A DNA stretch of 64,000 nucleotides from an uncultured Candidatus Bathyarchaeia archaeon (GCA_964558305.1 CAZLCE010000006.1:3231-67230); one strand, 5' to 3'; counted from the stretch's first letter, positions 23,756 through 41,624 are shown. The notes: generated from the letters alone by a model not told the origin. Numbers and translations: made by a program.

Positions 23756-25066
23756 TTATGTCTCTCTCATGTTCTTGAGAATTTCTCCAACATTTTGAAC
23801 TGTGTATCCTATATCTTCGTTGGTATGAGCCACAGAGAGATGACATCTCTTGTTTGCGTGCGGAAGTATGAATATACCCTTTCTCATCATTTCTCTCTGG
23901 AATTTCTTGAATAGTTCTGTGCTAGAGGTCAACGTGTCTCTATAGTCGCGAATTTTCTTTTCTGTAAAAAGAAGTTGAAATACCGACCCAAAACCAACTG
24001 TTTGAGCTCTAAGCTTGAGTTCAGCGATAATCTCATTAATTTGCTTTCTAAGGTTTTCTCCAAGATTGAAAAGCCGTTGACAAGCACCATCTTTCTCTAA
24101 TTCTCTAATTGTAGCCAGAGTTGCAGCCATGCTGATGGGGTTTCCATTAAAAGTTCCCCCATAATCAACCCTTCCTGTAGGTTTAAACATTTCCATGATA
24201 TCTTTTCTTCCACAAACTGCAGCCACAGGAAAACCATTTGCCATCGCTTTTGCAAATGTAGTCAGGTCTGGTGTTACATTGAATAGCTTTTGAGCCCCAC
24301 CTAAATTGTGGCGAAAACCGCTAACTACCTCATCAAATACCAATATGATCTCATATTTCATAGTTATTTCTCTGAGGAACTTTAAGAACCCTTTTTTAGG
24401 GGGAATGCATGTGGCACTTCCGTGAAGAACTGGTTCAGTTATGAGTGCAGCGATATCGTCTTTTTGTTTTTTTATCGTTTTCTCCAAAACTTCAGAATCA
24501 TTGAAGGGAACAACAATTGTGTTTTTGGCAACCTCCATAGAGAGACCATCAGTGTCGGGAACGGGTATCGGGGATTCTCTTGGACCCGCATTTCTTAAGG
24601 ATGGACCTGAGCTGACAGAAACATAGTCGTGCCAACCATGATATGCGCCTTCAAACTTTACAATTTTCCATCTTTTTGTGTAGGCTCGAGCAACACGAAT
24701 AGCATGATAAGTTGCCTCAGTTCCACTGTTACAAAATCTAACCATCTGCGCAGAGGGAACGTACTTTTTGATCTTTTTGGCAACTTCAACTTCTAACTCG
24801 TTGGAAAAGCCATATATTATCCCCTTGTCCAGCTGATTTTTCACCGCAGCAACTACACTAGGGTGCGCATGCCCAAGAACAACGGGACCAAAAGCTAAGT
24901 GATAATCAATGTATTCGTTGCCATCTACGTCGTATATCTTCGCGCCTTTCGCTTTCGATATAAAAATAGGATACGGATCAGAAAATCGCAGTGCACTGTG
25001 AACACCGCCAGGTGTCAGTTTCTTTGCTTCTTCAAAGAGCTTCTTAGATTTGTTCAGCTTTTTCAT
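23756..25066 (-). CDS. Class III PLP-dependent aminotransferase / glutamate-1-semialdehyde-2,1-aminomutase-like
   Basis: 436 aa. LTPGGVHS..YIDYHLAFGPVVLGHAHP..FDEVVSGFR..TTFAKAMANGFP motifs match the GSA-aminomutase-like subgroup. Substrate unknown. Confidence 0.85.
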   Translation of the reverse strand: MKKLNKSKKLFEEAKKLTPGGVHSALRFSDPYPIFISKAKGAKIYDVDGNEYIDYHLAFGPVVLGHAHPSVVAAVKNQLDKGIIYGFSNELEVEVAKKIKKYVPSAQMVRFCNSGTEATYHAIRVARAYTKRWKIVKFEGAYHGWHDYVSVSSGPSLRNAGPRESPIPVPDTDGLSMEVAKNTIVVPFNDSEVLEKTIKKQKDDIAALITEPVLHGSATCIPPKKGFLKFLREITMKYEIILVFDEVVSGFRHNLGGAQKLFNVTPDLTTFAKAMANGFPVAAVCGRKDIMEMFKPTGRVDYGGTFNGNPISMAATLATIRELEKDGACQRLFNLGENLRKQINEIIAELKLRAQTVGFGSVFQLLFTEKKIRDYRDTLTSSTELFKKFQREMMRKGIFILPHANKRCHLSVAHTNEDIGYTVQNVGEILKNMRET

Positions 25067-25081
25067 ACTATTTTCCCTTGA

Positions 25082-26503
25082 TCATTTTGAGTATTTAGCA
25101 TAAGTGTCAAGTATTATCACGAAAGATTTCTCACAGCCTGCCAAGCCTGCAACTTTATCGTTTCCTTCAATGACCAAGTATTCGTCTGGCGAGTGGGCTC
25201 TTCCACCGTGTCCAAGTCCAGCATCGATAAATGGCAGATATAAAGGTCCACGATTAAACAAGTAGTATGGAACACTTGAAGCGGTAATGGGCCAAATTTC
25301 AGGTTTGTATCCTAACTTTTCGTATGCTTGGATTGCAGCTTGAACAATTGGCTCCTTTACGCTTGTCTTAGCCCACTCATAAGGATCCAAAGACTTGACC
25401 GTTATGTCCGTATATCCATGCTTGTCGAGATGCTTGCGGATCTTTTGAATAACTTCTTCTGATTTTTGATCTGGAACTAGTCTCGCATCCATTTTCACTG
25501 TGACTTTATGAGGAAGTACCGTTTTTGATCCAGGCCCAGTGTATCCTCCCCAGATTCCGTCAATGTTTAACGTTGTGGAATACATATATTGCAGGAGAAG
25601 CTCTCTTCCATGCAAGTCATTTATGAATCGCTCCACTTTTGCTTCATGCTTTATTGCTTCTTCGTCGAATGTTTCCACAAGTTTGTCGACGAGTTCGAGG
25701 TCTTCTTTGCTTGGCGGTTTTACGTTTTCGTACCAATCTTCGATGAGAGTTTTGTTTCCGTCTTTTGAGGTCATTGTGGCTAAGGCGTGAATCATTCGCC
25801 ATGCTGGGCTGTCAATCCAAGATTTGTCGCTGCTGTGGATGTCAAATTCCATGGGTCCTCTTCCCCAAGATTTACCGCTGCACTCAAGTTCTACGTATTC
25901 GATTCCTTTCCACCCAAGTCCCATGATCGCTTTTCCTTTCTCGTCTTGGCAAGCGTCAGGTCCAAAGAGAGCATCAGCTTTTAGCATGTCCTTGTGTTCT
26001 TTTACGAACTCTGCGAAATGGGTACTTTCCAATTCTTCGTCTCCTTGCGCCACAAACTTGAGATTCACTGGAATCTCCTCTCCCACGGCTAAAATGGATT
26101 CAAGGGCATTAAGAAAGGCTATTAAGGGTCCTTTAGTATTTATGGCTCCTCTAGCGATGACGCATTTTCCAAATGGTTCAATGTCGACTAGTCTAGCTTC
26201 CAAAGGCGGGCTGGTCCATTTCTCGCCGGTAAATGGCTGGGTATCATACATCATATAAACGAGCAAAGTTTTCTGTGCATGGGCATCATACTCGCCGTAA
26301 ACCACTGGAAAACTCTGGGTTTCTATGAGTCTTGCATTCTTGCATCCGAGTTTCACAAAATAGCTTTTTAAAAGTTCAGCGCACTCTCTGACCCCGTAGT
26401 TTTCTGCTGAAACACTTGGCTGACGCAAAAAATCTTGCAATTTCTTAATGTGTTCATTTAAATGAGCGTCGATATATTTGCTAATTTTTTCAAAATTGAC
26501 CAT
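25082..26503 (-). CDS. M20-family metallopeptidase / amidohydrolase (ArgE/DapE/ACY1/CPG2-like)
   Basis: 473 aa. LRQPSVSAE..PVVYGEY..LLVYMMYDTQP..ARGAINTKGP..GDEE motifs. It is a paralog of 56261-57616. Confidence 0.85.
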   Translation of the reverse strand: MVNFEKISKYIDAHLNEHIKKLQDFLRQPSVSAENYGVRECAELLKSYFVKLGCKNARLIETQSFPVVYGEYDAHAQKTLLVYMMYDTQPFTGEKWTSPPLEARLVDIEPFGKCVIARGAINTKGPLIAFLNALESILAVGEEIPVNLKFVAQGDEELESTHFAEFVKEHKDMLKADALFGPDACQDEKGKAIMGLGWKGIEYVELECSGKSWGRGPMEFDIHSSDKSWIDSPAWRMIHALATMTSKDGNKTLIEDWYENVKPPSKEDLELVDKLVETFDEEAIKHEAKVERFINDLHGRELLLQYMYSTTLNIDGIWGGYTGPGSKTVLPHKVTVKMDARLVPDQKSEEVIQKIRKHLDKHGYTDITVKSLDPYEWAKTSVKEPIVQAAIQAYEKLGYKPEIWPITASSVPYYLFNRGPLYLPFIDAGLGHGGRAHSPDEYLVIEGNDKVAGLAGCEKSFVIILDTYAKYSK

Positions 26504-26598: not shown

Positions 26599-28275
26599 AT
26601 GATGGCTCCTATGGCATTTGATATTCTTATCAAAAATGGATTTATCATCGATGGCGCGGGGAATCCTTGGTTCAAAGCAGATGTTGGCGTTTCAAATGGA
26701 AAAATCGCAGAAATTCATGGACTGATTGATGTTAAGGCAGAAAGAGTTTTAGACGTTAATGGGTTAGTGGTTTCCCCAGGTTTTATAGACATTCACACGC
26801 ACTCAGACCTTACACTTTTGATAAATCCCTATGCTGACAGCAAAATTAGGCAAGGTGTTACTACTGAAGTCGTTGGCAACTGTGGTGTGAGTGCAGCACC
26901 GACACGAAAGAGGACTTTAAATTTGCTTAAAGATGAATGGGGTTCTCAGGCTGAGGAAGTTAAATGGAATTGGACCACATTTGACGAATACCTAAGTCGA
27001 TTGGAGCATGGAATATCGGTTAATGTTGCTTCTTTTGTGGGTCACGGCACAGTCAGAACCGCAATCATGGGAGTTAACGATAGACGGCCCACCAGAAAAG
27101 AAATGGAAAAAATGAAGACCTTAGTTGCAGAATCAATGGAAGCTGGAGCCTTTGGCTTATCAAGCGGACTAGTGTATCTACCTGGCTGCTTCGCTGAGAC
27201 TTCAGAATTAATTGAACTTTGCAAAGTAGTAGCCAATTATGGTGGCTTATACACATCTCACATACGAGGTGAAAGAGAGACAATAGTGGATGCGCTGAAA
27301 GAGGCAATAGAAATAGGCGAACGAGCAGGTGTACCAGTGCAAGTATCCCATAACTGCCCAAAATATGGAGGTCATGGAAAGCTCAAAGAAATGTTTGAAA
27401 TTTATGAGAAAGCTAGAGCACGGGGAGTTGAAGTTACTTTAGACAATGATGCACACACAGACCTCAATCCTAGCTTAAGTCAAGTGCTTCCACAATGGGC
27501 ACAAGCAGGTGGAAACAAAAAAATAGTTGAGAGATTAAGGGATCCCAAAACCCGTAAGAAGATCAAAAAAGAGATCATTGAAGATAAGCATCCTGGACCT
27601 GGCTATGTTGGACTCGTAAAACACGGTCGTTGGGATAGAATTTTCTTGTTTCGTTGTAGGAAAAATAAGAATTTGATAGGAAAAAGCTTCAAGGAGATTG
27701 CAAAGATAAGGAGTGCGGATCCATTTGACGCCTTTTTTGACCTGATAATCGAGGAAAAAGGTGACGTGAGTGCTCTTTTTGATTACATTGAAGAGGAAGA
27801 CATCCGCACTCTGCTGAAGCATCCTTTAATGATGGTTTGCAGCGATGGCTTTGCCTCATCTCAACGTGGCGTCTTAAGAAAAATTGAGGGCTATTCACCG
27901 TGCAGCTATGGCGAGTACCCCTACATTCTAGAGAGATACGTTAGAGAAGAGAAAGTTCTATCGCTTCATGAAGCAATCAGAAAAATGACGTCGTTTCCCG
28001 CTCAAAAATTAGGCTTAAAAGATCGCGGTTTGCTCAGAGAGGGCATGTGGGCTGACATGGTCATTTTTAACGCTGGCACCATTAAAGATAAAGCAACAAG
28101 CCGATTCCCGTACAGCTTTCCTTTAGAAAATTATCCACACAAATATCCAGAAGGCATAGAATATGTAATAGTGAACGGAGAAATAGTAGTTGAGAAGGGA
28201 AGACACAGGGGTGTTCTCCCGGGAAAAGTTCTCCGTCACCGAGCGAAGAAAATTTACTTGCGCAAAAAGAGGTGA
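26599..28275 (+). CDS. N-acyl-D-amino-acid deacylase (D-aminoacylase) family amidohydrolase
   Basis: 558 aa. FDILIKNGFIIDGAG..GFIDIHTHSD..VSHNCPK..MVCSDG are typical D-aminoacylase signatures. Confidence 0.85.
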   Translation: MMAPMAFDILIKNGFIIDGAGNPWFKADVGVSNGKIAEIHGLIDVKAERVLDVNGLVVSPGFIDIHTHSDLTLLINPYADSKIRQGVTTEVVGNCGVSAAPTRKRTLNLLKDEWGSQAEEVKWNWTTFDEYLSRLEHGISVNVASFVGHGTVRTAIMGVNDRRPTRKEMEKMKTLVAESMEAGAFGLSSGLVYLPGCFAETSELIELCKVVANYGGLYTSHIRGERETIVDALKEAIEIGERAGVPVQVSHNCPKYGGHGKLKEMFEIYEKARARGVEVTLDNDAHTDLNPSLSQVLPQWAQAGGNKKIVERLRDPKTRKKIKKEIIEDKHPGPGYVGLVKHGRWDRIFLFRCRKNKNLIGKSFKEIAKIRSADPFDAFFDLIIEEKGDVSALFDYIEEEDIRTLLKHPLMMVCSDGFASSQRGVLRKIEGYSPCSYGEYPYILERYVREEKVLSLHEAIRKMTSFPAQKLGLKDRGLLREGMWADMVIFNAGTIKDKATSRFPYSFPLENYPHKYPEGIEYVIVNGEIVVEKGRHRGVLPGKVLRHRAKKIYLRKKR

Positions 28276-28284
28276 AAACCTCAC

Positions 28285-29730
28285 TTGGTCAGGAAAACTC
28301 TCCAGCTATTGTCTAAAGACGAAGTTCAAACAATCCATGCAAGTTCTCTTAAGGTGCTGGAAGAGGTCGGCGTTCAAATAGACAATGAAAACGCGTTAAA
28401 GTTATTGGCTGATGCAGGGGCAAACGTGGATTACAAAGAGAAACTGGTTTATATTCCCGAGTCGCTGGTTCAGGAAGCTTTGGAAAAGGTTCCATCAGAG
28501 TTTAGGCTTTATGATTTTGAACATAAACAGGAACTTTTGTTCGCTGGCGATAATGTTTACTTTAATCCTGGCTCAACAGCCCTCTACATATTAGATGGGC
28601 AGAGCATGGAGATGAGACGTCCAACCTCAAAAGACTTGACTGATTTTGTTAGGTTAACAGACGCTCTTCAGCACGTTCATGCTCAGAGCACTGCCATGGT
28701 TATCAGCGACGTACCCGACTCCGTGGTAGATCGGTTCCGCTTCTATCTAATACTCAAGAATTCAGCGAAACCAATCATTGCTGGCGCCTTTACAATAGAA
28801 GGTCTTTATGACATGAAACGCATGCTTGAAATAGTTGTCGGCGGAGAGGAGGCTTTAAGGAAAAAACCGTGTTTATTAATGGATGTGTGTCCATCACCGC
28901 CGTTGAAATGGAGTAAAATAACCTCTCAAAACTTGATAGATTCGGCTAAATTTAGCATACCTACCGAAATAATACCTGCGCCGCAATTAGGGTCAACGGC
29001 GCCTGCAACACTTGCTGGGCTGCTTGTGCAGCACAACGCTGAATTTCTATCGGGTCTTGTTATGTCTCAACTCGTGAATGCTGGGTTGCCAATTGTTTAC
29101 AGTGGTTCACCCTCTTTGATGGACATGAGATATGGGACCGGATGCGTCGGCAACATAGAGGTTGCCATGCTCTCGGCAGCGTACTCTCAAATAGCAAAAT
29201 TCTATGGTATCCCCTCAGGCGCATATTTGGGCATAAGCGAAACAAAGCTAGTCGACGCACAAACTGGGCTTGAATCCGCCATCGGATTAGTCATCGGGAC
29301 GCTGGCGGGCATCAACTGCATCACAGGTCCTGGAATGTTGGGTTTTGAAAACTGCCAGAGCTTTGAAAAATTGGTCATCGACAACGAAATCTGCGGAATG
29401 GCATTACGATTGATAAGAGATATTACGTTTAATGATGAAACTCTTGCATTTGACTTAATCAAGAAAGTGGGTCCAGGCGGACATTTTCTGTCTGAAAAGC
29501 ACACTCTTAAGTGGTTTCAGATTGAGGAGTATTTGCCTTCTTCGGTGATAGATAAGACAAGTAAATCACGTTGGGAATGCAGTGAGGCAAAGGATGCATT
29601 GAGCAGAGCCAAAGCCTCTGCAGATAAAATATTAGAGGAACATCATCCGAAGCCCTTGCCTTCTGATGTCGAGAAAGAACTAGATTCCTTTATATCTGAA
29701 ATCCTTAAACAAGCAGCAAAAACTTTGTGA
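28285..29730 (+). CDS. MttB-superfamily (trimethylamine methyltransferase-like) substrate:corrinoid methyltransferase, non-pyrrolysine type (paralog 1)
   Basis: 481 aa with a TTG start 10 nt after the upstream stop. LSKDEVQTIHASSLKVLEEVGVQI..ALKLLADAGANVD matches the MttB-family N-terminus. The frame is uninterrupted, with no in-frame TAG. Confidence 0.85.
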   Translation: MVRKTLQLLSKDEVQTIHASSLKVLEEVGVQIDNENALKLLADAGANVDYKEKLVYIPESLVQEALEKVPSEFRLYDFEHKQELLFAGDNVYFNPGSTALYILDGQSMEMRRPTSKDLTDFVRLTDALQHVHAQSTAMVISDVPDSVVDRFRFYLILKNSAKPIIAGAFTIEGLYDMKRMLEIVVGGEEALRKKPCLLMDVCPSPPLKWSKITSQNLIDSAKFSIPTEIIPAPQLGSTAPATLAGLLVQHNAEFLSGLVMSQLVNAGLPIVYSGSPSLMDMRYGTGCVGNIEVAMLSAAYSQIAKFYGIPSGAYLGISETKLVDAQTGLESAIGLVIGTLAGINCITGPGMLGFENCQSFEKLVIDNEICGMALRLIRDITFNDETLAFDLIKKVGPGGHFLSEKHTLKWFQIEEYLPSSVIDKTSKSRWECSEAKDALSRAKASADKILEEHHPKPLPSDVEKELDSFISEILKQAAKTL

Positions 29731-29734
29731 GAAA

Positions 29735-31624
29735 GTGCATATGTCCCTCAAAAAATTGATAACTCTCATGTTTGAACCTGACGGAATAAAGTCAAAATTC
29801 AGAAAAGACACCACAATACTCTGCGCTCTGAAGGAAGCGGGCTTGAAAATAAGGTCCGAATGTGGTGGCAGAGGAGTTTGCGGTAAATGCAAGATAATCG
29901 TTCAAAACGCCCTAAGCTTCAGCGCGGTCACCAACGCAGAAAGAGAACGTCTGTCTGCTTCTGAATTAAAGTCTGGGTATAGGCTGGCTTGTGAATGTTC
30001 AGTTTTGAAGGACGCTAAAATCTTCATACCCGAAGAAAGCCGCGCAATAACTAGAAAACTACTCATAGAAGGAACCGAAAGACCTGTCAAAGTAAAACCA
30101 ACAATTCGCAAACTATATGTAAAGATACCGAAACCTTCCTTAAGCGACATTCGCTCAGATGTCCAGCGGCTCCAGGATTCTTTAAAGGACATTTACAAAA
30201 TTGAAATAACTGAAATTGACCATACACTTTTGAAAAAGTTGCCACGAATTCTTCGCAACGCAAACTGGAAAGTCACGGTTACAATTTGGGATGAAAAGGA
30301 AATAATTTCTGTGGAACCTGGCGACACGGTAAAAAAGTCCTATGGAGTAGCCATCGACATTGGAACATCAAAAATAATTTGCTATCTTTCCGATCTGACA
30401 AATGGAGAGCTTATTGGCACAGGATCTGTGGAAAATCCCCAAACGATGTATGGCGAAGACGTAATTTCTAGAATTGCTTATGCTTCACAGTCAGATGATT
30501 CGCTAAAGAAATTGCAAAAACTTGTCATCGACGGTGTGAACGCCACACTCTTGGAAGCTTCTCAAAAATCTAGACTTAGCTTGCAGAACGTTTACGAGAT
30601 AACAGTGGTTGGAAACACGGCAATGCATCACATTTTCCTAGGTATTCAACCTAAGTATCTCGGCTTGGCACCTTACGTTCCAGCCATAAGTGATCCGGTC
30701 ACTGTGAAAGCAAGGGATTTGTCGATTAAGGCGAATCCTTCAGCCAAAGTACACGTGCTTTCTGTTATCGCAGGTTTTGTAGGCGCAGATGCGGTCGCAG
30801 ACATCATTTCAACAGGAATCTATGAATCAGATAAACTTTCAATGATGGTTGACATAGGAACTAACACTGAAGTAGTATTAGGTGATAAGCATGGAATTGT
30901 GGCTTGCTCGTGCGCGTCTGGACCTGCCTTTGAGGGTGCGCACATAAAGTTTGGCATGAAGGCTGTAACTGGCGCTATAGAGAGACTGCAGATAAACCCT
31001 GAAAACTTCGAGGTAAGCTATCAAGCAATTGGAAACGTTAAACCAATGGGCTTGTGTGGTTCAGCGATAATTGACGCTGTTGCCAACCTATTGAAGTGCA
31101 AAGTAATTGATATGGATGGAAGATTTACAGATGCTCAAATCAAGTCTAGACTGAAAACTACGAATGAAACGAAGAGCTTTATCCTCGTTTCAAGGGAAGA
31201 GGGAGCAACACGCGACATCACGATTACACAGAAAGACATCAGGGAAGTTCAGTTGGCTAAGGCTGCCATTTACACAGGATGCTACATTCTCATGAAAAGA
31301 AAGAACATAAAACCCTCCGACATCAAAAAATTCTATGTAGCTGGAGCCTTCGGCAATTACATAAATCTTGAAAATGCAAAACTAATCGGCATGCTGCCGG
31401 ACATCCCCACAAAAATTATAACTTTTGTTGGAAATGCCGCTGGAGCAGGTGCGAGAATGGCTCTGATTTCGAAGGCTCAGCGACAGATAGCAGCTTCTAT
31501 CAGTCGGAAAGTAGATTACGTTGAACTCGCTTTGGATCTTGATTTTCAAAGGGAGTTTGCTTTGGCTACGTGCTTTCCGCACAGAGATTTGGACAGGTTT
31601 CCATGTGTCGAAAACCTCTTCTAA
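29735..31624 (+). CDS. Reductive activator of corrinoid proteins, RACo-type ([2Fe-2S] ferredoxin domain + ASKHA ATPase, DUF4445)
   Basis: 629 aa. N-terminal plant-type ferredoxin motif SECGGRGVCGKCKI..LACE, and ASKHA phosphate motifs GVAIDIGTSK and MVDIGTNTE. The start is GTG 29735 or ATG 29741. Confidence 0.85.
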   Translation: MHMSLKKLITLMFEPDGIKSKFRKDTTILCALKEAGLKIRSECGGRGVCGKCKIIVQNALSFSAVTNAERERLSASELKSGYRLACECSVLKDAKIFIPEESRAITRKLLIEGTERPVKVKPTIRKLYVKIPKPSLSDIRSDVQRLQDSLKDIYKIEITEIDHTLLKKLPRILRNANWKVTVTIWDEKEIISVEPGDTVKKSYGVAIDIGTSKIICYLSDLTNGELIGTGSVENPQTMYGEDVISRIAYASQSDDSLKKLQKLVIDGVNATLLEASQKSRLSLQNVYEITVVGNTAMHHIFLGIQPKYLGLAPYVPAISDPVTVKARDLSIKANPSAKVHVLSVIAGFVGADAVADIISTGIYESDKLSMMVDIGTNTEVVLGDKHGIVACSCASGPAFEGAHIKFGMKAVTGAIERLQINPENFEVSYQAIGNVKPMGLCGSAIIDAVANLLKCKVIDMDGRFTDAQIKSRLKTTNETKSFILVSREEGATRDITITQKDIREVQLAKAAIYTGCYILMKRKNIKPSDIKKFYVAGAFGNYINLENAKLIGMLPDIPTKIITFVGNAAGAGARMALISKAQRQIAASISRKVDYVELALDLDFQREFALATCFPHRDLDRFPCVENLF

Positions 31625-33072
31625 GGCGCCAAGGCTTTGGTTGCTGTTTTTAATATTTCTTCAAGTTGCTTCTTTACATTTTCATCTAAAGATGGAGGTT
31701 CGTGTTCTACTAGGATTTTCTTAACCTTCTCTCGTGCAACTTCCACTATACTTTTACTGCCCATTTTCTCCCATTGGGACCGTGAGGCTCTATTGGCGAG
31801 TTTGGGAAAGAAGTATTCATCGCGAAAGTGCTGAAGGGTATGTTTTTGTTGGAGAAAATTTGTCGACTCTCTAGCAACTTTTATTATGACGTCTACTGCA
31901 AGCGTTTCCTCATCAAAGTCTATGCCCCTGACTGCTCTGAATATCATTCCGAAGATTTCATCATCAATAACCAATTGCTCATAACTTACGGTAATGCCAC
32001 CTTCAATAGATCCAGCGCCCGACAGCGCATTGGCTCCCGAGAGTGCAGGTAAAAGACCGTTTAAGGCTTTTTCAAAAGCAGCCTGTTCGTCTAGCATTTT
32101 AGAATCGGTGTCTAGTCCGTAGACGTCTGAAGGCAAATCGTAGTATTTTGCAAGTTGTACGCATCCCACGGACATTATTGTCGCTTCAATTCCATCGCAA
32201 GCTTGTCCCGTCGACATGTCTAGAGGTATGCATCTTGGGGAGTATTCAACGGGATTGCCAGGGTTTAGAAGCTGTACGATTACTATTCCGGCTAACATTT
32301 CCACGTTTTGCTGAACTAAGGTTCCAGCTAATGTGACTGGGCTGGCTACTCCAGCAAGAGGGCAAGGTAACACAGCAATAGGTAAGTTATGCTTGGCTGC
32401 TCTGGCCATTATTCTTGTAACTTCATTTGAGAATTGTAGTGGGCTCGTTGGTGAAGCGCTGCAAGTTACTATTGGACGTTTTCTCAGCTCTTCCTCTCCA
32501 ACAAGGGTCTCAAGCATTTTAATTATGTATCGGTAACTGTTATCGTCGAACGGGGTTGCATCAAAATTTTTGCCAGTATTCCTAATTATCGCTTCAACAG
32601 CGTAAATATCTCTCAAACGCTCTGGCACATCACTTGGGTAGACAATCATGGTTTGACTGTGAATGTTTGGGAGAAAATCCACGATTTTCGTCAAGTTCTC
32701 AACATCTTTTCTAGTGGAAGGTCGCACTGCCCCTGAATCGATGTCAATCACATTGGCTGCACCGCCCACAGGATGAGTGTAGATTTTTCCGTCTCCAAGT
32801 TCAATGTTATGCTTTGATTCTCTAGCGTACAACGTTACATGTTTGGGTGCCTTTCTGACGCATTCCTCGACCAAACTGGGCGACATTTTAGCCCTTTTAT
32901 TGGTGAAGTCAACGTTCATTCCGTTATCAGCCAAAAACTTTAGAAAATCATTATCATGAATCAAGACGCCGACTTCTTCCAAGATTTTCAGGCTGGAAGC
33001 ATGTATGTTCTCGATTTGATTTCGAGTTAGAAATTCTAGCTTCAATTTTATCACTAACGTCTTTTTCCTCAT
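31621..33072 (-). CDS. MttB-superfamily substrate:corrinoid methyltransferase, non-pyrrolysine type (paralog 2)
   Basis: 483 aa. LTRNQIENIHASSLKILEEVGVLI..FLKFLADNGMNVD. Clearly homologous to paralog 1 but divergent. No in-frame TAG. Confidence 0.85.
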   Translation of the reverse strand: MRKKTLVIKLKLEFLTRNQIENIHASSLKILEEVGVLIHDNDFLKFLADNGMNVDFTNKRAKMSPSLVEECVRKAPKHVTLYARESKHNIELGDGKIYTHPVGGAANVIDIDSGAVRPSTRKDVENLTKIVDFLPNIHSQTMIVYPSDVPERLRDIYAVEAIIRNTGKNFDATPFDDNSYRYIIKMLETLVGEEELRKRPIVTCSASPTSPLQFSNEVTRIMARAAKHNLPIAVLPCPLAGVASPVTLAGTLVQQNVEMLAGIVIVQLLNPGNPVEYSPRCIPLDMSTGQACDGIEATIMSVGCVQLAKYYDLPSDVYGLDTDSKMLDEQAAFEKALNGLLPALSGANALSGAGSIEGGITVSYEQLVIDDEIFGMIFRAVRGIDFDEETLAVDVIIKVARESTNFLQQKHTLQHFRDEYFFPKLANRASRSQWEKMGSKSIVEVAREKVKKILVEHEPPSLDENVKKQLEEILKTATKALAP

Positions 33073-33107
33073 AGCCTAATGAATAGTGTAATCTGTTAGT
33101 TTAAGCT

Positions 33108-33120
33108 GAAAATATTTAAA
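33108..33120 (+). promoter_or_regulatory. Putative BRE/TATA element GAAAATATTTAAA in the MttB2 / corrinoid-protein divergent intergenic region
   Basis: Exact 13-mer match to 26567-26579. It lies between the divergent starts 33072 (-) and 33180 (+). Confidence 0.35.
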
Positions 33121-33143
33121 TTTTTTATGCGATCCCATGGAAT

Positions 33144-33153: not shown

Positions 33154-33179
33154 TTCATAACCAAGTAAGCAGAAGTTCG

Positions 33180-33842
33180 GTGAAGCATCTGATGAGTGCA
33201 TTAACTTCAACCTTAAAAGAGCAACTTCTGACTTTTGACGCGGACAAGTTTGTTGGAACTATAAAAAAACTAATCGACGAAGGCCTCAGTCCAATTGAAG
33301 TAGTTAACGCTTTAACTCAAGTGTTGAAAGAAATAGGGAAAAAATTTGAAAGTGGCGAACTGTTTCTGGTGCATCTTGTTGCGGCTGGTGATTTGGCTAG
33401 AAGAGCCACCACAGAAGTTTTGGAGCCGCTTCTAAAAAAGAGCAGTGGAGAAAGAAAGACGTTGGGGAAAGTTGTAATTGGGACAGTTGCAGGGGACATA
33501 CATGATATTGGCAAGAACATTGTTGCGATGCTGCTCTTCACAGCTGGTTTTGAAGTTTATGATCTGGGAAAAGATGTTTCAACCGAAGAGTTTGTAAAGA
33601 AAACAAAGGAAGTCAACCCTGACCTCGTTGCTATGTCTGCTCTTTTGACCACTACCCTTCCAGCTCAACGAGAAGTAGTCCAAGCCTTGACTAAATCTGG
33701 TCTGCGCGATAAAGTAAAGATTCTCGTTGGAGGAGCCCCAACCACCGGCGATTGGGCTAAAGAGATTGGCGCGGATGGCCACGGTGCAGACGCCATAGAC
33801 GCAGTAAAGGTTGCAAAAAAACTGTTGGGAGTAAGCGATTAA
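33180..33842 (+). CDS. Cobalamin-binding corrinoid protein (MtbC/MttC/MtgC-like)
   Basis: 220 aa. N-terminal helical cap domain, then the B12-binding signatures D-x-H-x-x-G (GDIHDIGKN), S-x-L (MSALLTT) and G-G (LVGGAP). The start may be ATG 33192. Confidence 0.9.
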   Translation: MKHLMSALTSTLKEQLLTFDADKFVGTIKKLIDEGLSPIEVVNALTQVLKEIGKKFESGELFLVHLVAAGDLARRATTEVLEPLLKKSSGERKTLGKVVIGTVAGDIHDIGKNIVAMLLFTAGFEVYDLGKDVSTEEFVKKTKEVNPDLVAMSALLTTTLPAQREVVQALTKSGLRDKVKILVGGAPTTGDWAKEIGADGHGADAIDAVKVAKKLLGVSD

Positions 33843-34756
33843 GCTATTTTAAAAATTGGGTGTGAAGGCGAAGGCATTTTACCTTTTTCTATCAGAAGCT
33901 GAGCAAAAGCTGCATTCACCATTGCGACGGCTGGAAAAACATAAGGTGCCCCCTCTATTGGTCCATAAAGTATGAAATCAGCTCCAGCAGCAAGCGTTAT
34001 GGTGTCGGCTACTGCTGCACATGGTTTTACAGCTTGCAAACCCATTTTGGTCTTTAATCCTCTCCATGTCCCTATAGCGTTGTGAGCGCCGCACCCCGTG
34101 GGGTATCCCAACTCATTTTTGAGGTCTAGAATCGCTTTGAACGCTGAGCCTAACGTTGGCACATCTAATACACACGCGTCTAAGAGTATCTTTTCAACTC
34201 CGCTCTGAGTGGCTAAGGGTAGAAGCTGCTTTATAGCTTCGACTCGACCCGCCGCGGTCATGTTTTTACTGTTATACGCCAATAACACAGCAGCCTTGAA
34301 CTTTGTTTCTTTGATTTTTTCAAATTCTACGGTTTTTGATTCGGGGTTAAGCGAATTGTAGATGCACTTCTCCTGAATTCCTACCTCCCTGGCGTAGTCT
34401 GCTGCAGCGATTCTGATTTCCGCTGAAGGAGCATCCAGAAGTATAGGCGTTTCTGTGACTGAAGTTACGAAATCTATCAATCGGCTTACCCATCTCTTAG
34501 AAGATAAAACAACATCCAACATGCAAGGCAATCCTGTCTTGTCAGAGAATTCCTCCTGAACTTTTATCAGCCTTTCAACTTCATTACGGTTATAATTGCC
34601 TGTTTCTTCGTTGAAATCTAAGTTTCTCTGTCTATAGTAAAAAATCGACCCTATAAGCACAGTGGGGTTGTCGCCACGCATCCCACCGATCGATACTTTT
34701 CCTACCGTGAATTTTTTCTGTTCAGATGAGGTTTGCTCCATCGTGATAAGCCTCAA
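33839..34756 (-). CDS. mtrH: MtrH-family methyltransferase (methyl-corrinoid:tetrahydromethanopterin/pterin methyltransferase)
   Basis: 305 aa. VGKVSIGGMRGDNPTVLIGSIFY and the overall length match Mtr subunit H homologs. No other mtr subunit genes are adjacent. Confidence 0.8.
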   Translation of the reverse strand: MRLITMEQTSSEQKKFTVGKVSIGGMRGDNPTVLIGSIFYYRQRNLDFNEETGNYNRNEVERLIKVQEEFSDKTGLPCMLDVVLSSKRWVSRLIDFVTSVTETPILLDAPSAEIRIAAADYAREVGIQEKCIYNSLNPESKTVEFEKIKETKFKAAVLLAYNSKNMTAAGRVEAIKQLLPLATQSGVEKILLDACVLDVPTLGSAFKAILDLKNELGYPTGCGAHNAIGTWRGLKTKMGLQAVKPCAAVADTITLAAGADFILYGPIEGAPYVFPAVAMVNAAFAQLLIEKGKMPSPSHPIFKIA

Positions 34757-34886: not shown

Positions 34887-36053
34887 ATGGAGCTCGGGAT
34901 AAATGTGAAGATAATTGTGTTGGGTTGTGGCAACATAGGGTCAGTGGCTGCTAAAGACTTGGCAGAAAACTTGCCATCCGCAGAAATAGTCGTGAGCGAC
35001 GTTAATAAGAGCCGAGCCAAAGAGGTTGCGTCAAAAATTGGTAAAGGCAACGTTTCTTGGATCCAAACAGACGCATCCAATCATCATGAACTTGTAAACA
35101 CCATAAAAAAATTCGACTTAGCCGTGGGAAGCCTGCCCGGAATGATGGGTTATAAAGCGTGTAAAGCCTCTGTCTCGGCAAAGGTGGACATGGTAGACGT
35201 TTCCTACATGCCCGAAGATGTAATGACATTGAACAAAGCCGCTTTAAAGGCTAAAGTATGCATCGTCCCAGACTGCGGAATGAGTCCTGGATTAGGCAGC
35301 ATATTGGCTGGTCATGCAGTTAGTAAACTCGACCAAATTGAGAGTATCCACATGCTAAATGGTGGACTCCCAGAAAAGCCAATTCCACCATTAGGTTACG
35401 TGATAACATGGTCTGTGAAGGATCTCATAGATATGTACTCTAGGAAAGTGAGCATAGTCAAAGGGGGCAAGGTGATTCAAGTGGAAGCTATGAGTGGGCT
35501 TGAAGAAATAGATTTTCCAAGAGTCGGAAAACTGGAGGCTTTTTACACTGATGGACTGAGAACTATGCTTCATACAGTGAAGGGAGTCAAAGACATGTGG
35601 GAAAAATCGCTTAGATACCCAGGGCATGTTGAAAAAATAAAGTTGCTGAAGACGCTTGGATTCTTTGATGAAAGTCTTGTAAAAATTGGAAGCTTGAACG
35701 TTTCTCCACGAGAAGTAACTGCTAAACTGCTCGAAAGTAAGTTGAAACGATCTGATGTCCCCGACATTGTGGCTATGCGTATTGTGGTTAGCGGAACAAA
35801 AAAAGACGAACGGATCACGTATACTTATCATGCAATAGATCGTTACGACAAGAAACACAAAGTCACAGCCATGGCAAGAACCACAGCATATACAACTTCA
35901 ATCGTAGCTCAACTGCTGGCAAAGAAAATCATAAAAGAAAAGGGTGTTTTGCCACCCGAGAAAATTGGAATGAACGAAAAACTCTACAATAAGCTCATGG
36001 GTGAAATGAAAAAACGAAAAATCATAGTTAAAGAGAATAAGAAAATTCACTAA
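34887..36053 (+). CDS. Saccharopine-dehydrogenase-family NAD(P) oxidoreductase (substrate unknown)
   Basis: 388 aa with the Rossmann motif IIVLGCGNIGSVAAKDL. A TATA-like AAGTTTTAAG at 34862-34871 sits only about 20 nt before ATG 34887, so the GTG at 34908 (VKIIVLGCG) may be the real start. Confidence 0.8.
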   Translation: MELGINVKIIVLGCGNIGSVAAKDLAENLPSAEIVVSDVNKSRAKEVASKIGKGNVSWIQTDASNHHELVNTIKKFDLAVGSLPGMMGYKACKASVSAKVDMVDVSYMPEDVMTLNKAALKAKVCIVPDCGMSPGLGSILAGHAVSKLDQIESIHMLNGGLPEKPIPPLGYVITWSVKDLIDMYSRKVSIVKGGKVIQVEAMSGLEEIDFPRVGKLEAFYTDGLRTMLHTVKGVKDMWEKSLRYPGHVEKIKLLKTLGFFDESLVKIGSLNVSPREVTAKLLESKLKRSDVPDIVAMRIVVSGTKKDERITYTYHAIDRYDKKHKVTAMARTTAYTTSIVAQLLAKKIIKEKGVLPPEKIGMNEKLYNKLMGEMKKRKIIVKENKKIH

Positions 36054-36094
36054 AAACTCCAATTTTTCCATGAAGGAACTAATAAGGTGTGGTC

Positions 36095-36928
36095 ATGGAG
36101 AAACTGATCATCACAGTTGCTCCCACTGGTTCTGTTCCTCGTAAAAAAGACACGCCTTACCTGCCAATAAGTCCAGATGAAATTGCTGAAACAGCCTATC
36201 TTTGCGAGCAAGAGGGCGCATCAATTATTCACATTCACTGCCGTGATGCCAATGAGGAACCTACATCAGATTATGCTATTTTCAAGGAAACCGTGGACAA
36301 AGTTCGGAACCGTTCAAAGCTGATAATTATGACATCAACAAGTGGCATGGCAGGTAAAACAGATGAAGAACGAGCTCAGCCACTAAAGACAAAACCAGAG
36401 ATGGCAAGCCTCACGACGGGTTCACTAAACTTTGCTGGGCGCAAACCATCAGTTGTATATGTAAACACTTGGGAGACGATAACATTTCTCGCTAAGAGAA
36501 TGCTTGAGGCGGACATTAAGCCAGAGATTGAAGCCTTCGATGTAGGTTTCATTCAACAAGGCATAAAGCTCATTGAACAAGGGCTAATCAAACCGCCTGC
36601 CCATTTTCAGTTGGTTATGGGTGTTGACGGTGGTATTCCTGCCACTTCAGATAACTTGCTACACATGTGTCGTCAACTTCCGCTCAGCGCTACATTCTGT
36701 GTGGCTGGCATAGGTAGGTGGCAATTGACTATGACTGCATTGGCAATAATTATGGGTGGGCATGTGAGAGTTGGACTTGAAGACAATATTTTCTACGTTA
36801 AGGGTAAATTGGCTCCAAACGAAGAATTTGTGGCTAGAGTACGGCGCATTGCGAAGGAGCTTCAACGCGAAATAGCTACACCCGAAGAGGCGCGGAAGAT
36901 TTTAGGATTGCAAATAAAACCACGCTAA
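36095..36928 (+). CDS. BKACE-family enzyme (3-keto-5-aminohexanoate cleavage enzyme-like, DUF849)
   Basis: MEKLIITVAPTGS..ISPDEIAETAYLCEQEGASIIHIHCRD (Zn ligands H-x-H) is typical of beta-keto acid cleavage enzymes. The ATG at 36095 is preferred over the track's GTG at 36089 because AAGGTG lies 8 nt upstream. Confidence 0.85.
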   Translation: MEKLIITVAPTGSVPRKKDTPYLPISPDEIAETAYLCEQEGASIIHIHCRDANEEPTSDYAIFKETVDKVRNRSKLIIMTSTSGMAGKTDEERAQPLKTKPEMASLTTGSLNFAGRKPSVVYVNTWETITFLAKRMLEADIKPEIEAFDVGFIQQGIKLIEQGLIKPPAHFQLVMGVDGGIPATSDNLLHMCRQLPLSATFCVAGIGRWQLTMTALAIIMGGHVRVGLEDNIFYVKGKLAPNEEFVARVRRIAKELQREIATPEEARKILGLQIKPR

Positions 36929-36950: not shown

Positions 36951-37949
36951 CTACTTTATTCTGTGGCATGCCACGTAATGTTCTTCTCCCACTTCGATAA
37001 GTTCTGGCTCTTCCTTTCTGCAAACTTCCTCGGCATTTGGGCATCTAGTGTGAAATCTACAGCCAGGAGGCGGATTTACAGGGCTTGGAATTTCTCCTTT
37101 AATTGTTAGTTTTATGCGTCGTGATTTTGGATCAGGTACAGGCACAGCAGATATGAGCGCTTTAGTGTAAGAGTGCAAGGGTTCATAAACAATATCCTCA
37201 GATGTTCCCATTTCCATTATTTTACCGAGGTACATTATGGCTATTCTATGGCACATGTGACGAGCCGTGGCTAGGTCATGAGTTATGTATAAAATCGAAA
37301 CGTTGAATTTCTCCACTAACTCTAAAAAGAGATTCAGTATTTCCGCTCTTATTGACACATCGAGCATTGATATTGGCTCGTCTGCAACTACGAATTCGGG
37401 ATTAAGTATGAAGGTTCTTGCTACGACAACTCTCTGTCTTTGTCCTCCGCTCAGCTCGTGGGGGTATCTGAGTAAAAATTCGTTTGGAGGAACTACCTTC
37501 ACGTCTTCAAGAGTTTTTATCACTCTTTCTTCTACTTCCTTCTCGCTGCTCAAAACCTTTTGAATGCGTAAGCCTTCTGCAATGATGTCCATGACGGTCT
37601 TTCTTGGGTTTAGGGATTCGTAAGGGTCTTGGAAAACTGTCTGCATTTTGCGCCGCAGTTGTTTCTGTTTCATTTGCTTTCTAGTGAGTTTAGTGATATC
37701 TTCGCCCTTGAAAAAAACTTTCCCACTTGTTGGGTCAATTATTTTAAGGACCAATCTTCCAGTGGTTGTCTTTCCGCTGCCACTTTCTCCAGCTAAACCA
37801 AAAATTTCTCTTGTTTTTATATCAAAGCTTACATCATCTACGGCTCGAACGAACGATTCTTTCTTTGAAAGTAAAGCTTGGAAAAAGCCTCTTCTAACGG
37901 GAAACCACTTTTTTAAGTTTAACACTTCTACTACTTTATTTTCAGACAT
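36951..37949 (-). CDS. oppF: Peptide/nickel (Opp/Dpp-type) ABC transporter ATP-binding protein
   Basis: 332 aa. Walker A GESGSGKTT, signature LSGGQRQR, Walker B VVADEP, and a C-terminal oligopeptide-transporter domain with PPPGCRFHTRCP. Confidence 0.9.
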   Translation of the reverse strand: MSENKVVEVLNLKKWFPVRRGFFQALLSKKESFVRAVDDVSFDIKTREIFGLAGESGSGKTTTGRLVLKIIDPTSGKVFFKGEDITKLTRKQMKQKQLRRKMQTVFQDPYESLNPRKTVMDIIAEGLRIQKVLSSEKEVEERVIKTLEDVKVVPPNEFLLRYPHELSGGQRQRVVVARTFILNPEFVVADEPISMLDVSIRAEILNLFLELVEKFNVSILYITHDLATARHMCHRIAIMYLGKIMEMGTSEDIVYEPLHSYTKALISAVPVPDPKSRRIKLTIKGEIPSPVNPPPGCRFHTRCPNAEEVCRKEEPELIEVGEEHYVACHRIK

Positions 37950-37969
37950 TTCGATTCTTCCATCTCAAA

Positions 37970-38971
37970 TCAACTATTCCCATACAAGTGGCATGCGACA
38001 AGATGCTCTTTTTCCTTCATCTTCGTTACAGCTGGCTCCTGTTCCTTGCAGATGGTTTTTGCGTAGGTGCATCTGGGATGGAATCTGCAACCTTTAGGCG
38101 GATCTAAGAGGTCTGGTGGAGACCCGGGGATCGAGTTCATTCGTGTTCTGGTTGATTTTATGTTTGGAAAAGCTTGAATTAACCCTTGCGTATAGGGATG
38201 CAGCGGTTCTTCAAATAAGTCTGAAACATCTGCGTATTCAACTATTTTTCCTGCATACATTATAGCAACTTTATCGCAAGTGTCAGCTATAATCGATAGG
38301 TCATGTGTTATCAAGATCACAGCCAAGTTCAGTTTTTTTCTCAAATCTTCCATTATACTTAGTACCTGAGCCTGAACAATAACGTCTAGTGCTGTTCCCG
38401 GTTCATCGGCGATTAAGAGTTCTGGATTACATGCTAAAGCCATTGCTATAAGCCCGCGTTGCCTCATGCCGCCGCTTAGCTCGTGAGGATAACTTTTTAT
38501 CCGTTTTCTTTCCATTCCTACTAATTCCAATAGTTCTTCGGCTCTGCTCGCGGCTTCTCTTCTGTTAAGTTTTGATTCATGAGCCAAAATAGCTTCTACG
38601 ATCTGATCTCCAAGGCTGTAAAGCGGGTCAAGCGCATTCATAGCGCCTTGAAACACTAAAGATATTTTCTTCCACCGAATTTTCCTCATCTCTTTTTCGG
38701 AAATTCTTGCAATGTCAAGGTCTTTTAAGAGGATCTTGCCGTCGGTTATTTTGCCTCGAGATGGAAGAATTTTCATGATAGATAACGCTACAGTAGTTTT
38801 GCCGCAGCCAGATTCACCTGCCAAACCCATGGCTTGTCCTTCTTTAACCTGAAAGTCGACGCCATCCACTGCTTTGACGGGGCCTCTTTTCGTGAAATAG
38901 TATGTTCTTAGGTTTTCGACGTTTAGAAGAGACATGTTCAAAAGTTGCCTTCTTGTAATGTATGTAAACAC
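37970..38971 (-). CDS. oppD: Peptide/nickel (Opp/Dpp-type) ABC transporter ATP-binding protein
   Basis: 333 aa. GESGCGKTT, LSGGMRQR, LIADEP, PKGCRFHPRC. The start may be the internal M (MSLLNVENL) at 38935. Confidence 0.9.
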   Translation of the reverse strand: MFTYITRRQLLNMSLLNVENLRTYYFTKRGPVKAVDGVDFQVKEGQAMGLAGESGCGKTTVALSIMKILPSRGKITDGKILLKDLDIARISEKEMRKIRWKKISLVFQGAMNALDPLYSLGDQIVEAILAHESKLNRREAASRAEELLELVGMERKRIKSYPHELSGGMRQRGLIAMALACNPELLIADEPGTALDVIVQAQVLSIMEDLRKKLNLAVILITHDLSIIADTCDKVAIMYAGKIVEYADVSDLFEEPLHPYTQGLIQAFPNIKSTRTRMNSIPGSPPDLLDPPKGCRFHPRCTYAKTICKEQEPAVTKMKEKEHLVACHLYGNS

Positions 38972-39073
38972 TTAGCTTGGGAGTTCATCCTTGATATAAA
39001 TCTTTTGAAAGACGTGAGGTATATTGTTTTGAAGAACCAATAAGGAATGCGTCAAAAAACGGTTAGATTAAAT

Positions 39074-40645: not shown

Positions 40646-41624
40646 CAGCTCCGTAAATCATGTCAACTAAGAAATTGGCGGCAATGACGCAAAGACTCAC
40701 AATGTAAAAGATCGCTTGTAAAGCGGGGTAATCCCATTCTTCAATCGATGTCCAAATCCACATTCCTAATCCTGGATATGTGAAAATTGTTTCGGTGACT
40801 AACGCTCCTGAGAGGGTGAAGGCAAAGGCTATGGCTACTTGTGTTATTATTGGTAGCGACGCGTTTTTTAGTGCGTGTTTAAAAAGTATCTTAAAATTAC
40901 TTAGTCCTTTTGCTTTTAGGGTAATTAGATAGTCCTCACTTAAGACCTCCAGCATTGACGCCCTTGTCAAAAGAACATATCCTCCAATAGTGATTATTAC
41001 TAATGTCAAGGCTGGCAAGAAAAGATACTGCAAGCGAATCGCAAATTCTATTAGAAAATTATCGGGTTTGCCATGAATAGCCCACTCCGGGGGATATGAA
41101 TGACCTAATGGAAACCAGCCTAAGTTGTAGGAGAATATTAAGAGCAAAAGCATTCCTATCCAAAAAACCGGCAGTCCCTGCGTCACTACCGAAAACATTG
41201 AAAAAAAGGTGTCTGCAATTTTTCCTCTTTTGTAAGCCGCTACCACTCCAAGAATCAATCCCATTACAACAGCTATAACTTCTGCAGTGATGCACATTGA
41301 AAGGGTATTTGAAAGACGTGAAAACATTTCCTCGGATATAGCTTCTCCTGTGCGATAAGAATAACCAAACTGAAAAGTCAACAAATTCTGGAGATATTTC
41401 AAATATCTTACATATATCGGCTCCAATAGTCCAAAGCGTACTTTGAGTTCCTCAATTTGTCCAGGACGAAGTCTCTTTTCGGATGCTAACATTTCTACTG
41501 GGCTTCTAACCATAAAGATGGCGAAATTAATTGTAATTACAATAAAGACTAGGACGATGGAATAAACAGCTCTCTTAACAACATACCCTCGTAGACCCAT
41601 ACTTGCCCTCTCGCTTTTATTCAC
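40620..41624 (-). CDS. oppB: Opp/Dpp-type ABC transporter permease (OppB-like)
   Basis: 334 aa. YVVKRAVYSIVLVFIVITINF N-terminus, an EAA-like loop (LEVLSEDYLITLKAKGLS), and 6 TM segments. Confidence 0.9.
   Translation of the reverse strand: MNKSERASMGLRGYVVKRAVYSIVLVFIVITINFAIFMVRSPVEMLASEKRLRPGQIEELKVRFGLLEPIYVRYLKYLQNLLTFQFGYSYRTGEAISEEMFSRLSNTLSMCITAEVIAVVMGLILGVVAAYKRGKIADTFFSMFSVVTQGLPVFWIGMLLLLIFSYNLGWFPLGHSYPPEWAIHGKPDNFLIEFAIRLQYLFLPALTLVIITIGGYVLLTRASMLEVLSEDYLITLKAKGLSNFKILFKHALKNASLPIITQVAIAFAFTLSGALVTETIFTYPGLGMWIWTSIEEWDYPALQAIFYIVSLCVIAANFLVDMIYGAVDPRIKYG

Follow-up and report, generated by a model that had tools for sequence, protein, structure and literature searches.

Does an amidohydrolase gene that directly precedes a corrinoid methyltransferase gene encode the metabolic partner of that methyltransferase, and if so, what kind of compound would the two enzymes share? 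The question is raised by a locus in a 64-kb stretch of contig C6 (hereafter the window) in the genome of an uncultured Candidatus Bathyarchaeia archaeon recovered from a hot-spring metagenome (G000; 1.57 Mb, 97% complete). Here, a gene for a metallo-amidohydrolase (AMH) is followed by genes for a non-pyrrolysine methyltransferase of the MttB superfamily (MttB1) and for a RACo-type reductive activator of corrinoid proteins. An earlier note on this DNA had taken the first enzyme for a D-aminoacylase, and had proposed that the three genes form a single operon whose hydrolase and methyltransferase act in sequence on one substrate. A functional link between AMH and MttB is the best reading of the data described below, and we consider it probable that AMH is a working part of a catabolic island conserved in Bathyarchaeia and the functional partner of the non-pyrrolysine MttB enzymes encoded there.

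The evidence that carries this reading is the conservation of the gene pair. Scanning of JGI metagenome contigs yielded 80 loci (loci are designated here by L and a number), onto which the 15 island proteins of the window were mapped by tblastn, and a tree was built from the 140 MttB sequences found. The clade that contains MttB1 comprises 33 sequences, is supported at 100% by SH-aLRT and spans 68-94% identity. Loci of this clade were assessable when at least 500 bp of upstream sequence was available, and in 20 of the 23 such loci an AMH orthologue (72-90% identity) was located directly upstream of MttB1 on the same strand. The distance between the two high-scoring segment pairs was 13-67 nt, and in L201 the two genes, as called, have 4 nt in common. 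Dereplication at 90% identity left 18 clusters with AMH and 2 without (18/20). The gene-neighbourhood survey proposed in the earlier note, which had asked whether amidohydrolase partners recur beside MttB homologues and whether the adjacency is conserved in related genomes, thus gave a positive answer, in that the partner recurs across diverged relatives. Of 29 loci, no more than about 12 have RACo next after MttB1. A different gene order, AMH(-) M20(+) MttB(+) AT(-), where M20 is a metallopeptidase and AT an aminotransferase, was found in L154, L161, L162, L167 and L173.

Seen from the side of AMH, the association is looser. Eleven AMH orthologues (69-82% identity) were taken solely for the length of their contigs, and an MttB-family gene was present within 2 kb of AMH in seven of them. 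The clade and the orientation of this gene vary: MttB1 lies downstream of AMH in L114 and L201, a gene of the MttB2 type (the second MttB of the window) is convergent on AMH in L202 and L203, and members of other MttB clades are near AMH in L198, L204 and L205. The window's genome contains two MttB genes, MttB1 and MttB2, both within the island; with 2-4 MttB genes per 1.5-2.3 Mb genome, proximity is expected by chance in approximately 1% of cases. Canonical homologues of AMH (37-53% identity, among the matches listed) served as a control, and in 0 of their 80 GTDB loci was an MttB gene detected within up to 10 kb; instead, these homologues often adjoin Opp-type transporters. A search of 300 sampled Bathyarchaeia species uncovered AMH paralogues only, with at most 53% identity, and an MttB gene was near just one of the 29 paralogue loci obtained from them, L083, whose product has the same pocket signature as AMH (described below). 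The linkage therefore persists across about 30% protein divergence and several gene orders within one type of hydrolase; AMH orthologues at 68-92% identity are plentiful in Bathyarchaeia. Taken together, the conservation, the controls and the chance expectation of about 1% argue that the AMH-MttB link is real and specific to this AMH subfamily. The link is asymmetric, in that MttB1 is nearly always accompanied by AMH and AMH is also found without MttB.

One could envisage that the two genes came to be neighbours by mere chance or by an accident of certain lineages, without functional meaning. The island is indeed patchy, since the AMH gene is absent from sampled members of the same GTDB family, and there are exceptions in both directions, AMH without MttB as well as MttB1 without AMH. 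An accident, however, would not be expected to leave the pair intact in approximately 18 dereplicated lineages, nor to place MttB within 2 kb of 7 of 11 AMH orthologues when about 1% is expected. We regard this explanation as hardly tenable; the conservation data already effectively refute it.

Two irregularities within the MttB1 clade deserve description in their own right. L134:5175-7193 is a near-identical strain variant of L201 (7222-13233) with a deletion that extends from the middle of the aminotransferase gene through M20 and AMH; a 147-aa Aminotran_3 stub now stands directly before MttB1-RACo, making this a natural AMH-minus variant that arose by a recent deletion. The MttB1 orthologues at L114:11651-13086 and L182:10001-11439, which do not group as sisters in the tree, are both one nucleotide short at the same codon, after ..ILKN[S/W], and each gene is thereby split into two open reading frames (ORFs). 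The equivalent position in the window is approximately 28760-28770. This could be independent pseudogenization at a fragile site or, alternatively, programmed recoding.

The arrangement of the genes in the window would fit an operon. The three same-strand ORFs lie where the earlier note had placed them, with gaps of 9 nt (28276-28284) and 4 nt (29731-29734), and, as it had also stated, a single strong motif resembling a B recognition element (BRE) and TATA box is found 5' of the first gene, AMH (Table 1). No TTTAAA[AT] heptamer is present near the MttB1 or RACo start codons. Runs of five or more T residues are absent between the three genes, and three such runs occur within the AMH gene. The Shine-Dalgarno (SD)-like sequence AAGAGGTGA is positioned before MttB1 as would be expected of a gene inside an archaeal operon. 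The short gaps, the SD-like sequence and the promoter motif are thus compatible with one predicted AMH-MttB1-RACo operon. The BRE/TATA-like 13-mer, GAAAATATTTAAA, has just two copies across the window, the second at about 33109-33121 in the spacer between the divergent MttB2 and corrinoid-protein genes, and the paired copies suggest that the island promoters may be under common regulation.

We next consider what AMH might hydrolyse. Its fold is that of the amidohydrolase superfamily (Pfam PF07969, 9e-29; PF01979, 6e-11), and its best matches among solved structures are a D-aminoacylase (1M7J) and an N-acyl-D-Glu deacylase (3GIP), at 231-237 bits, with the D-aminoacylase 9G5M also near. The metal-binding and catalytic residues of D-aminoacylase, which in the numbering of the DA1 enzyme are the HxH motif, Cys96, His220, His250 and Asp366, align with H65, H67, C94, H220, H250 and D415 of AMH (P0001 numbering), and all six are invariant in 40 orthologues. 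The substrate carboxylate of D-acylases is held by the Tyr of a PYP/YPY motif together with Arg373 in the Kle enzyme, equivalent to Arg377 in DA1/Afa, and a 2025 structural review describes this Tyr and Arg as conserved across characterised D-acylases (PMC12149444, section 3.5). In AMH, Y-P-Y is replaced by D283-A284-H285, followed by D287, and the Arg by C434, and these replacements are found in 40 of 40 orthologues; in addition, the pocket residue Lys252 is changed to C252 and a Thr to E438. In contrast, among 103 distant homologues the Arg is kept in 95 and Y-P-Y in 83-95. Within the orthologue clade the pocket changes are thus without exception, and elsewhere they are rare, although the signature also occurs in an Anaerolineaceae locus (L001) and in a Thermoplasmata locus (L010; OppDF-BKACE-AT-AT-AMH, where BKACE is a beta-keto-acid cleavage enzyme). 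By alignment, two cationic residues were lost from the pocket and three acidic residues gained. Given the loss of the carboxylate site and the change in charge, the leaving group of AMH is more likely cationic, with no carboxylate on the carbon beside the scissile nitrogen. Residues C252, D283, H285, D287, C434 and E438 are all clade-invariant at positions that line the D-acylase substrate pocket, and the two new cysteines, together with the His and the acidic residues, could form an additional metal site besides inverting the charge.

The assignment of AMH as a D-aminoacylase consequently holds at the level of the family, with intact metal ligands, and fails at the defining feature, the Tyr and Arg of the carboxylate site; the idea that a D-configured amino acid is the substrate is weakened by the same loss. 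It could still be argued that AMH is an ordinary N-acyl-D-amino-acid deacylase or an L-Xaa-D-Xaa dipeptidase that scavenges racemized necromass peptides imported through Opp, the neighbouring MttB being incidental. Public sources name the orthologues D-aminoacylase, the closest solved structures and the conserved catalytic metal ligands are those of such enzymes, and canonical homologues frequently lie beside Opp-type transporters. The uniform replacement of carboxylate-binding residues that most distant homologues keep argues against this possibility, as do NCBIfam scores far under every curated cut-off and the restriction of the MttB linkage to this AMH subfamily. We consider it very unlikely.

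The two methyltransferases show a parallel change. MttB1 matches PF06253 at 2.6e-95 over profile positions 30-493, and MttB2 at 1.2e-105. Against TIGR02369, the equivalog of the pyrrolysine (Pyl)-containing MttB, they score 441 and 489 bits, respectively, both under the cut-off of 525, and neither ORF is interrupted by an in-frame UAG codon that could specify Pyl. The residue aligned with Pyl334 of 7XCL is Ile in MttB1 and Asp in MttB2. By the uninterrupted ORFs and the scores under cut-off, neither is a Pyl-containing trimethylamine methyltransferase of the TIGR02369 type. The closest solved structure to MttB1 is that of the glycine betaine methyltransferase MtgB (9YCE/2QNE); MttB2 is closer to the Pyl trimethylamine methyltransferase 7XCL/7XCM than to MtgB. 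MtgB binds glycine betaine through Y97, R312, H348 and F356. Of these, R312 is reported to bind the acidic group and to be shared by every non-Pyl member characterised so far, all of which act on acidic quaternary amines (PMC13080624). At the four positions MttB1 reads S/G/T/E and MttB2 reads G/D/S/G, with the same picture in the L116 and L139 orthologues; by alignment, R312 is thus missing from both enzymes, whose pockets have a Glu or an Asp in its stead. On the basis of these residues, glycine betaine was rejected as a substrate. A carnitine-type route, in which dehydrocarnitine is cleaved to betainyl-CoA, is not favoured either, for want of an HADH-type dehydrogenase and of a betaine site in the MttBs. 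MttB1 and MttB2 are thus predicted to be unlike MtgB, MtcB, MtyB, MtpB and MthB in substrate binding. Because AMH has lost its carboxylate site and the MttBs lack the acid-binding Arg, the substrate would be cationic and would carry no alpha-carboxylate.

AMH, MttB1 and RACo form one portion of a conserved island some 20 kb long (Table 1), with the gene order GSAM-like aminotransferase(-), M20(-), AMH(+), MttB1(+), RACo(+), MttB2(-), corrinoid protein(+), MtrH-family(-), SDH-fold(+), BKACE(+), OppFDCB(-) and dockerin-tailed family-5 binding protein(+), SDH denoting saccharopine dehydrogenase. The first methyltransferase (MT1; MttB1 or MttB2), the corrinoid protein, the second methyltransferase (MT2; MtrH family) and the activator all lie within 28285-34756, i.e., a complete three-component system with its activator. 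RACo has the domains Fer2 (2Fe-2S ferredoxin), RACo_linker, Raco_middle and RACo_C_ter (ASKHA ATPase) in this order, and scores 495 bits against NF040756 AcsV, under the cut-off of 800. The genome contains CdhC and two Ftr genes and lacks McrA, which argues that methyl groups would go to a Wood-Ljungdahl pathway of the tetrahydromethanopterin (H4MPT) type and not to methanogenesis.

Table 1. Features of the AMH-MttB island; positions are counted from the first nucleotide of the window
Feature	Position	Strand	Remarks
GSAM-like class-III aminotransferase paralogue	23756..25066	-	Pfam Aminotran_3; TIGR00713 474 bits, cut-off 527
M20 metallopeptidase (carboxypeptidase/aminoacylase type)	25082..26503	-	Pfam Peptidase_M20 and M20_dimer; divergent from AMH
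BRE/TATA-like 13-mer GAAAATATTTAAA	26567-26579	+	starts 32 nt upstream of AMH ATG
AMH, Amidohydro_3 metallo-amidohydrolase	26599-28275	+	558 aa; Pfam Amidohydro_3/Amidohydro_1; distinct subfamily, related to D-aminoacylases
SD-like AAGAGGTGA	28267-28275	+	overlaps AMH stop codon; 9 nt before MttB1 TTG start
MttB1, non-pyrrolysine MttB-superfamily methyltransferase	28285-29730	+	481 aa, TTG start; full-length PF06253
RACo-type reductive activator of corrinoid proteins	29735-31624	+	629 aa, GTG start; alternative ATG at 29741
MttB2, second non-Pyl MttB-superfamily methyltransferase	31621..33072	-	PF06253; convergent with RACo, 4-nt overlap
Corrinoid (B12-binding) protein, cognate	33180..33842	+	Pfam B12-binding_2 and B12-binding; under MtbC and MtgC cut-offs
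MtrH-family methyl-corrinoid:pterin methyltransferase (MT2)	33839..34756	-	PF02007; NF002142 311 bits, cut-off 287
SDH-fold amine dehydrogenase	34887..36053	+	Pfam Sacchrp_dh_NADP and Sacchrp_dh_C
BKACE beta-keto-acid cleavage enzyme	36089..36928	+	PF05853, 328 bits
Opp/Dpp-type ATP-binding cassette (ABC) importer, two ATPases and two permeases	36951..41624	-	Pfam ABC_tran and oligo_HPY, BPD_transp_1
Family-5 solute-binding protein with dockerin tail	41789..44074	+	Pfam SBP_bac_5 and Dockerin_1

The other genes of the island have their own affinities. The aminotransferase was rejected as the housekeeping HemL, the true hemL of this genome being on G000:C20 with 621 bits. The window type of aminotransferase, or a GSAM-like type with 44-46% identity to it, adjoins M20 in most related loci. 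The genome has three GSAM-like genes (G000:C20:7374-8627, G000:C2:116907-118145 and window 23756-25066), of which the C20 copy alone passes the hemL equivalog cut-off, and the C2 copy resembles the 44-46% type of the related islands. The solved structure closest to M20 is that of the Sulfolobus carboxypeptidase Sso-CP2 (4MMO), and an M20 gene adjoins the AMH orthologue in 8 of the 11 independently sampled loci. The SDH-fold enzyme is closest to 3ABI (PH1688; 240 bits), which we take to be an L-lysine 6-dehydrogenase. BKACE is present in a single copy in the genome and is closest to Kce (2Y7D), an enzyme that belongs to lysine fermentation; a BKACE gene and an SDH-like gene pair up in many related loci. 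Lysine 2,3-aminomutase was not found in the genome, so the precursor of the beta-keto acid is probably imported, and endogenous lysine fermentation is unlikely as the source of the BKACE substrate. The Opp importer is kept at the edge of the island in L127, L128, L143, L182, L202 and L203.

A few observations concern the surroundings of these genes. In L113/L114:16036-17730 and L204:14773-16452, the place of RACo is taken by a protein of 559-564 aa, for which Pfam gave just a weak C-terminal match to DUF885. In L205:3185-7594, the AMH orthologue is followed by genes for CoA-transferase A/B, thiolase, ACP_syn_III_C and an OB-fold protein; the CoA-transferase and thiolase genes are compatible with use of the acetoacetate that BKACE would release. 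A second AMH paralogue, of the canonical type, lies 7 kb downstream in the same locus among Opp genes. In the window, the approximately 760 bp between the convergent helicase and aminotransferase genes (22997-23755) contain no ORF of 80 aa or longer apart from one of 86 aa that overlaps the end of the aminotransferase gene.

Given this set of genes, the following course can be proposed. The Opp-type ABC importer would take up a peptide-like or N-acylated nitrogen compound, and AMH and the divergently transcribed M20 peptidase would cut its amide bonds. The amine freed by AMH would be cationic, stemming either from an acylated methylamine or from a diamino acid akin to lysine, beta-lysine or ornithine that carries its acyl group on the omega nitrogen. 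MttB1 and MttB2 would then shift N-methyl groups to the corrinoid protein, which RACo would keep reduced at the expense of ATP, and the MtrH-like enzyme would hand the methyl group to H4MPT for entry into the Wood-Ljungdahl pathway. Deamination of the carbon skeleton to a beta-keto acid would fall to the GSAM-like aminotransferase together with the lysine-6-dehydrogenase-like enzyme, and BKACE would cleave this acid with acetyl-CoA to give acetoacetate and an acyl-CoA. We infer, as the earlier note had done, that AMH and MttB would act in sequence on one substrate. For such a sequence, the most coherent class of substrate would be diamino acids that are omega-N-acylated, N-methylated or both, or else other cationic methylamines.

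As the main alternative, two pathways may share the island. AMH, M20, the aminotransferase, the SDH-fold enzyme, BKACE and Opp would form a self-contained module for a peptide-like or beta/omega-amino-acid compound, and MttB, the corrinoid protein, MtrH and RACo a cassette for an unrelated methylamine; AMH and MttB would never meet on the same molecule, and their co-location and partial co-transcription would reflect shared regulation or a metabolic hub, with acetyl-CoA from the Wood-Ljungdahl pathway feeding BKACE. Several loci are consistent with this view. The hydrolase/BKACE module is intact without MttB in L199 (AT-M20-AMH-BKACE) and L200 (AT-AMH-SDH-BKACE), and AMH stands alone beside an MFS transporter in L111. 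Conversely, L134 has dropped AT-M20-AMH yet retains MttB1-RACo, and members of a related MttB clade, at about 59% identity, are often accompanied by no more than a corrinoid protein, RACo and MtrH (L146, L149, L155-L157 and G301). Furthermore, comparison of L200 with the window places the methyltransferase cassette exactly between AMH and SDH/BKACE, in the manner of an insertion, and this suggests that the cassette is an add-on to an older hydrolase/BKACE module, which is also found without it. The MttB genes, however, are not just set at a border of the module: they occur in the midst of the hydrolase genes, in four or more orders (such as after AMH, after M20 or convergent on AMH), and the MttB1 clade almost never lacks an AMH gene directly upstream, at spacings from about 70 nt down to the 4-nt overlap. 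In addition, the AMH and MttB families share the unusual loss of carboxylate-binding residues. In view of the evidence on both sides, we hold separate pathways to be a distinct possibility, if a doubtful one.

A functional partnership of AMH with the MttBs is therefore the reading that we retain, and several points weigh against it. The three tiny metatranscriptomes of the source study contain no reads from the region. The deductions about the pockets come from sequence alignment to solved homologues. We know of no natural compound shown to need all of these enzymes. MttB1 is without AMH in 3 of the 23 assessable loci (L137, L141 and the deletion variant L134), and 4 of the 11 AMH orthologues have no MttB within 10 kb (L111, L115, L199 and L200), of which L115 comes from Thorarchaeota; the partner is thus frequent and not obligatory. 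From L199 and L200, it may be that AMH belongs primarily to the aminotransferase/SDH/BKACE module and is associated only secondarily with the methyltransferases. Finally, the non-Pyl MttBs characterised to date take one methyl group, and only from acidic quaternary amines.

A more specific form of the partnership can be put forward only tentatively, and we hold it rather unlikely: the charge-inverted AMH and the Arg-less MttBs would handle N-methylated amines of a cationic, non-acidic kind, set free or exposed by deacylation, a class new for corrinoid methyltransferases. The most coherent candidates would be diamino acids modified at the omega nitrogen, namely N-epsilon-acyl/N-epsilon-methyl lysine and beta-lysine or ornithine derivatives, derived from necromass proteins or osmolytes. 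If this is true, the methyl groups of modified lysines would have a direct route into the Wood-Ljungdahl pathway of archaea, and many MttB-like genes of Bathyarchaeia and of other TACK and Asgard archaea would gain a named substrate. The matter is of some breadth, as Bathyarchaeia, Brockarchaeia, Culexarchaeia and Asgard archaea abound in non-Pyl MttB homologues, which are the basis for proposed non-methanogenic methylotrophy in sediments and hot springs (PMC11291895). A conserved and probably co-transcribed hydrolase narrows the search for the MttB substrate to a few assays on two or three recombinant proteins, and the residues lost from the pockets point away from glycine betaine, carnitine and other acidic quaternary amines and towards amide-masked cationic methylamines. 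It also follows that the name "D-aminoacylase", which hundreds of Bathyarchaeia proteins bear in public sources, probably misstates their substrate.

How does the island compare with systems already described? Like the D-aminoacylases of Alcaligenes faecalis DA1 (1M7J), Bordetella Bb3285 (3GIP/3GIQ) and KleDacyl (9G5M), AMH has the Amidohydro_3 fold with the His-x-His/Cys/His/His/Asp set, and a mobile insertion domain whose length is similar. Unlike these enzymes, it has Asp-Ala-His in place of the carboxylate-site Tyr (YPY), Cys in place of carboxylate-site Arg373/377 and of Lys252, and an Asp and a Glu gained in addition.

In lysine and beta-lysine fermentation and in the N6-acetyl-beta-lysine pathway of Pseudomonas B4, an aminotransferase or Kdd is followed by a Kce-type cleavage enzyme and then a deacetylase. 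The island resembles these pathways, by analogy only, in having an amine dehydrogenase and an aminotransferase beside a Kce-like BKACE, a deacylase and, in a related locus, acetoacetate genes. It differs from them in that the genome has no lysine 2,3-aminomutase, the island has no homologues of KamDE, Kdd or Kal, and corrinoid methyltransferases are present.

MttB-like genes of TACK and Asgard archaea (Brockarchaeia, Culexarchaeia, Freyarchaeia and Atabeyarchaeia) have reportedly been proposed to serve non-methanogenic methylotrophy. Their substrate has been left as "quaternary amines or unknown" (PMC11291895). Those systems and the island alike comprise an archaeal non-Pyl MttB clade near a corrinoid protein and MtrH, in genomes with a Wood-Ljungdahl pathway and no Mcr. 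The amidohydrolase/M20/BKACE neighbourhood and the active-site substitutions, in contrast, are not mentioned in those reports, as far as they were read and searched.

The closest relationship is with the non-Pyl MttB systems of Desulfitobacterium hafniense (MtgB/MtgC/MtgA) and Eubacterium limosum (MtpB, MtcB, MtyB and MthB, with RamQ/RACo-type activators), which share with the island a Pyl-free TIM-barrel MttB. In both, a B12-binding protein, a methyl-corrinoid:pterin methyltransferase and an ATP-dependent activator are co-encoded, and the methyl group is, or in the island would be, delivered to the Wood-Ljungdahl pathway. The MT2 of the island differs in being MtrH-like and of the H4MPT type. 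A further difference lies in the active sites, as the island MttBs keep 0 of the 4 glycine-betaine residues of MtgB, and the conserved Arg is Gly in MttB1 and Asp in MttB2 (PMC13080624). MttB1 is also distinguished by the metallo-amidohydrolase gene that precedes it and is probably co-transcribed with it, in a setting of peptidase, aminotransferase, amine-dehydrogenase and BKACE genes. A search of the accessible literature returned no paper in which MttB, or its superfamily, appears together with an amidohydrolase or aminoacylase, nor any that joins Bathyarchaeia with a D-aminoacylase, in line with the earlier note, to whose author no described MttB-family system with an obligatory amidohydrolase partner was known. 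These comparisons point to a corrinoid methyltransferase system with a conserved hydrolase partner that had not previously been described, and whose active sites, as read from the aligned residues, would favour a new class of substrate.

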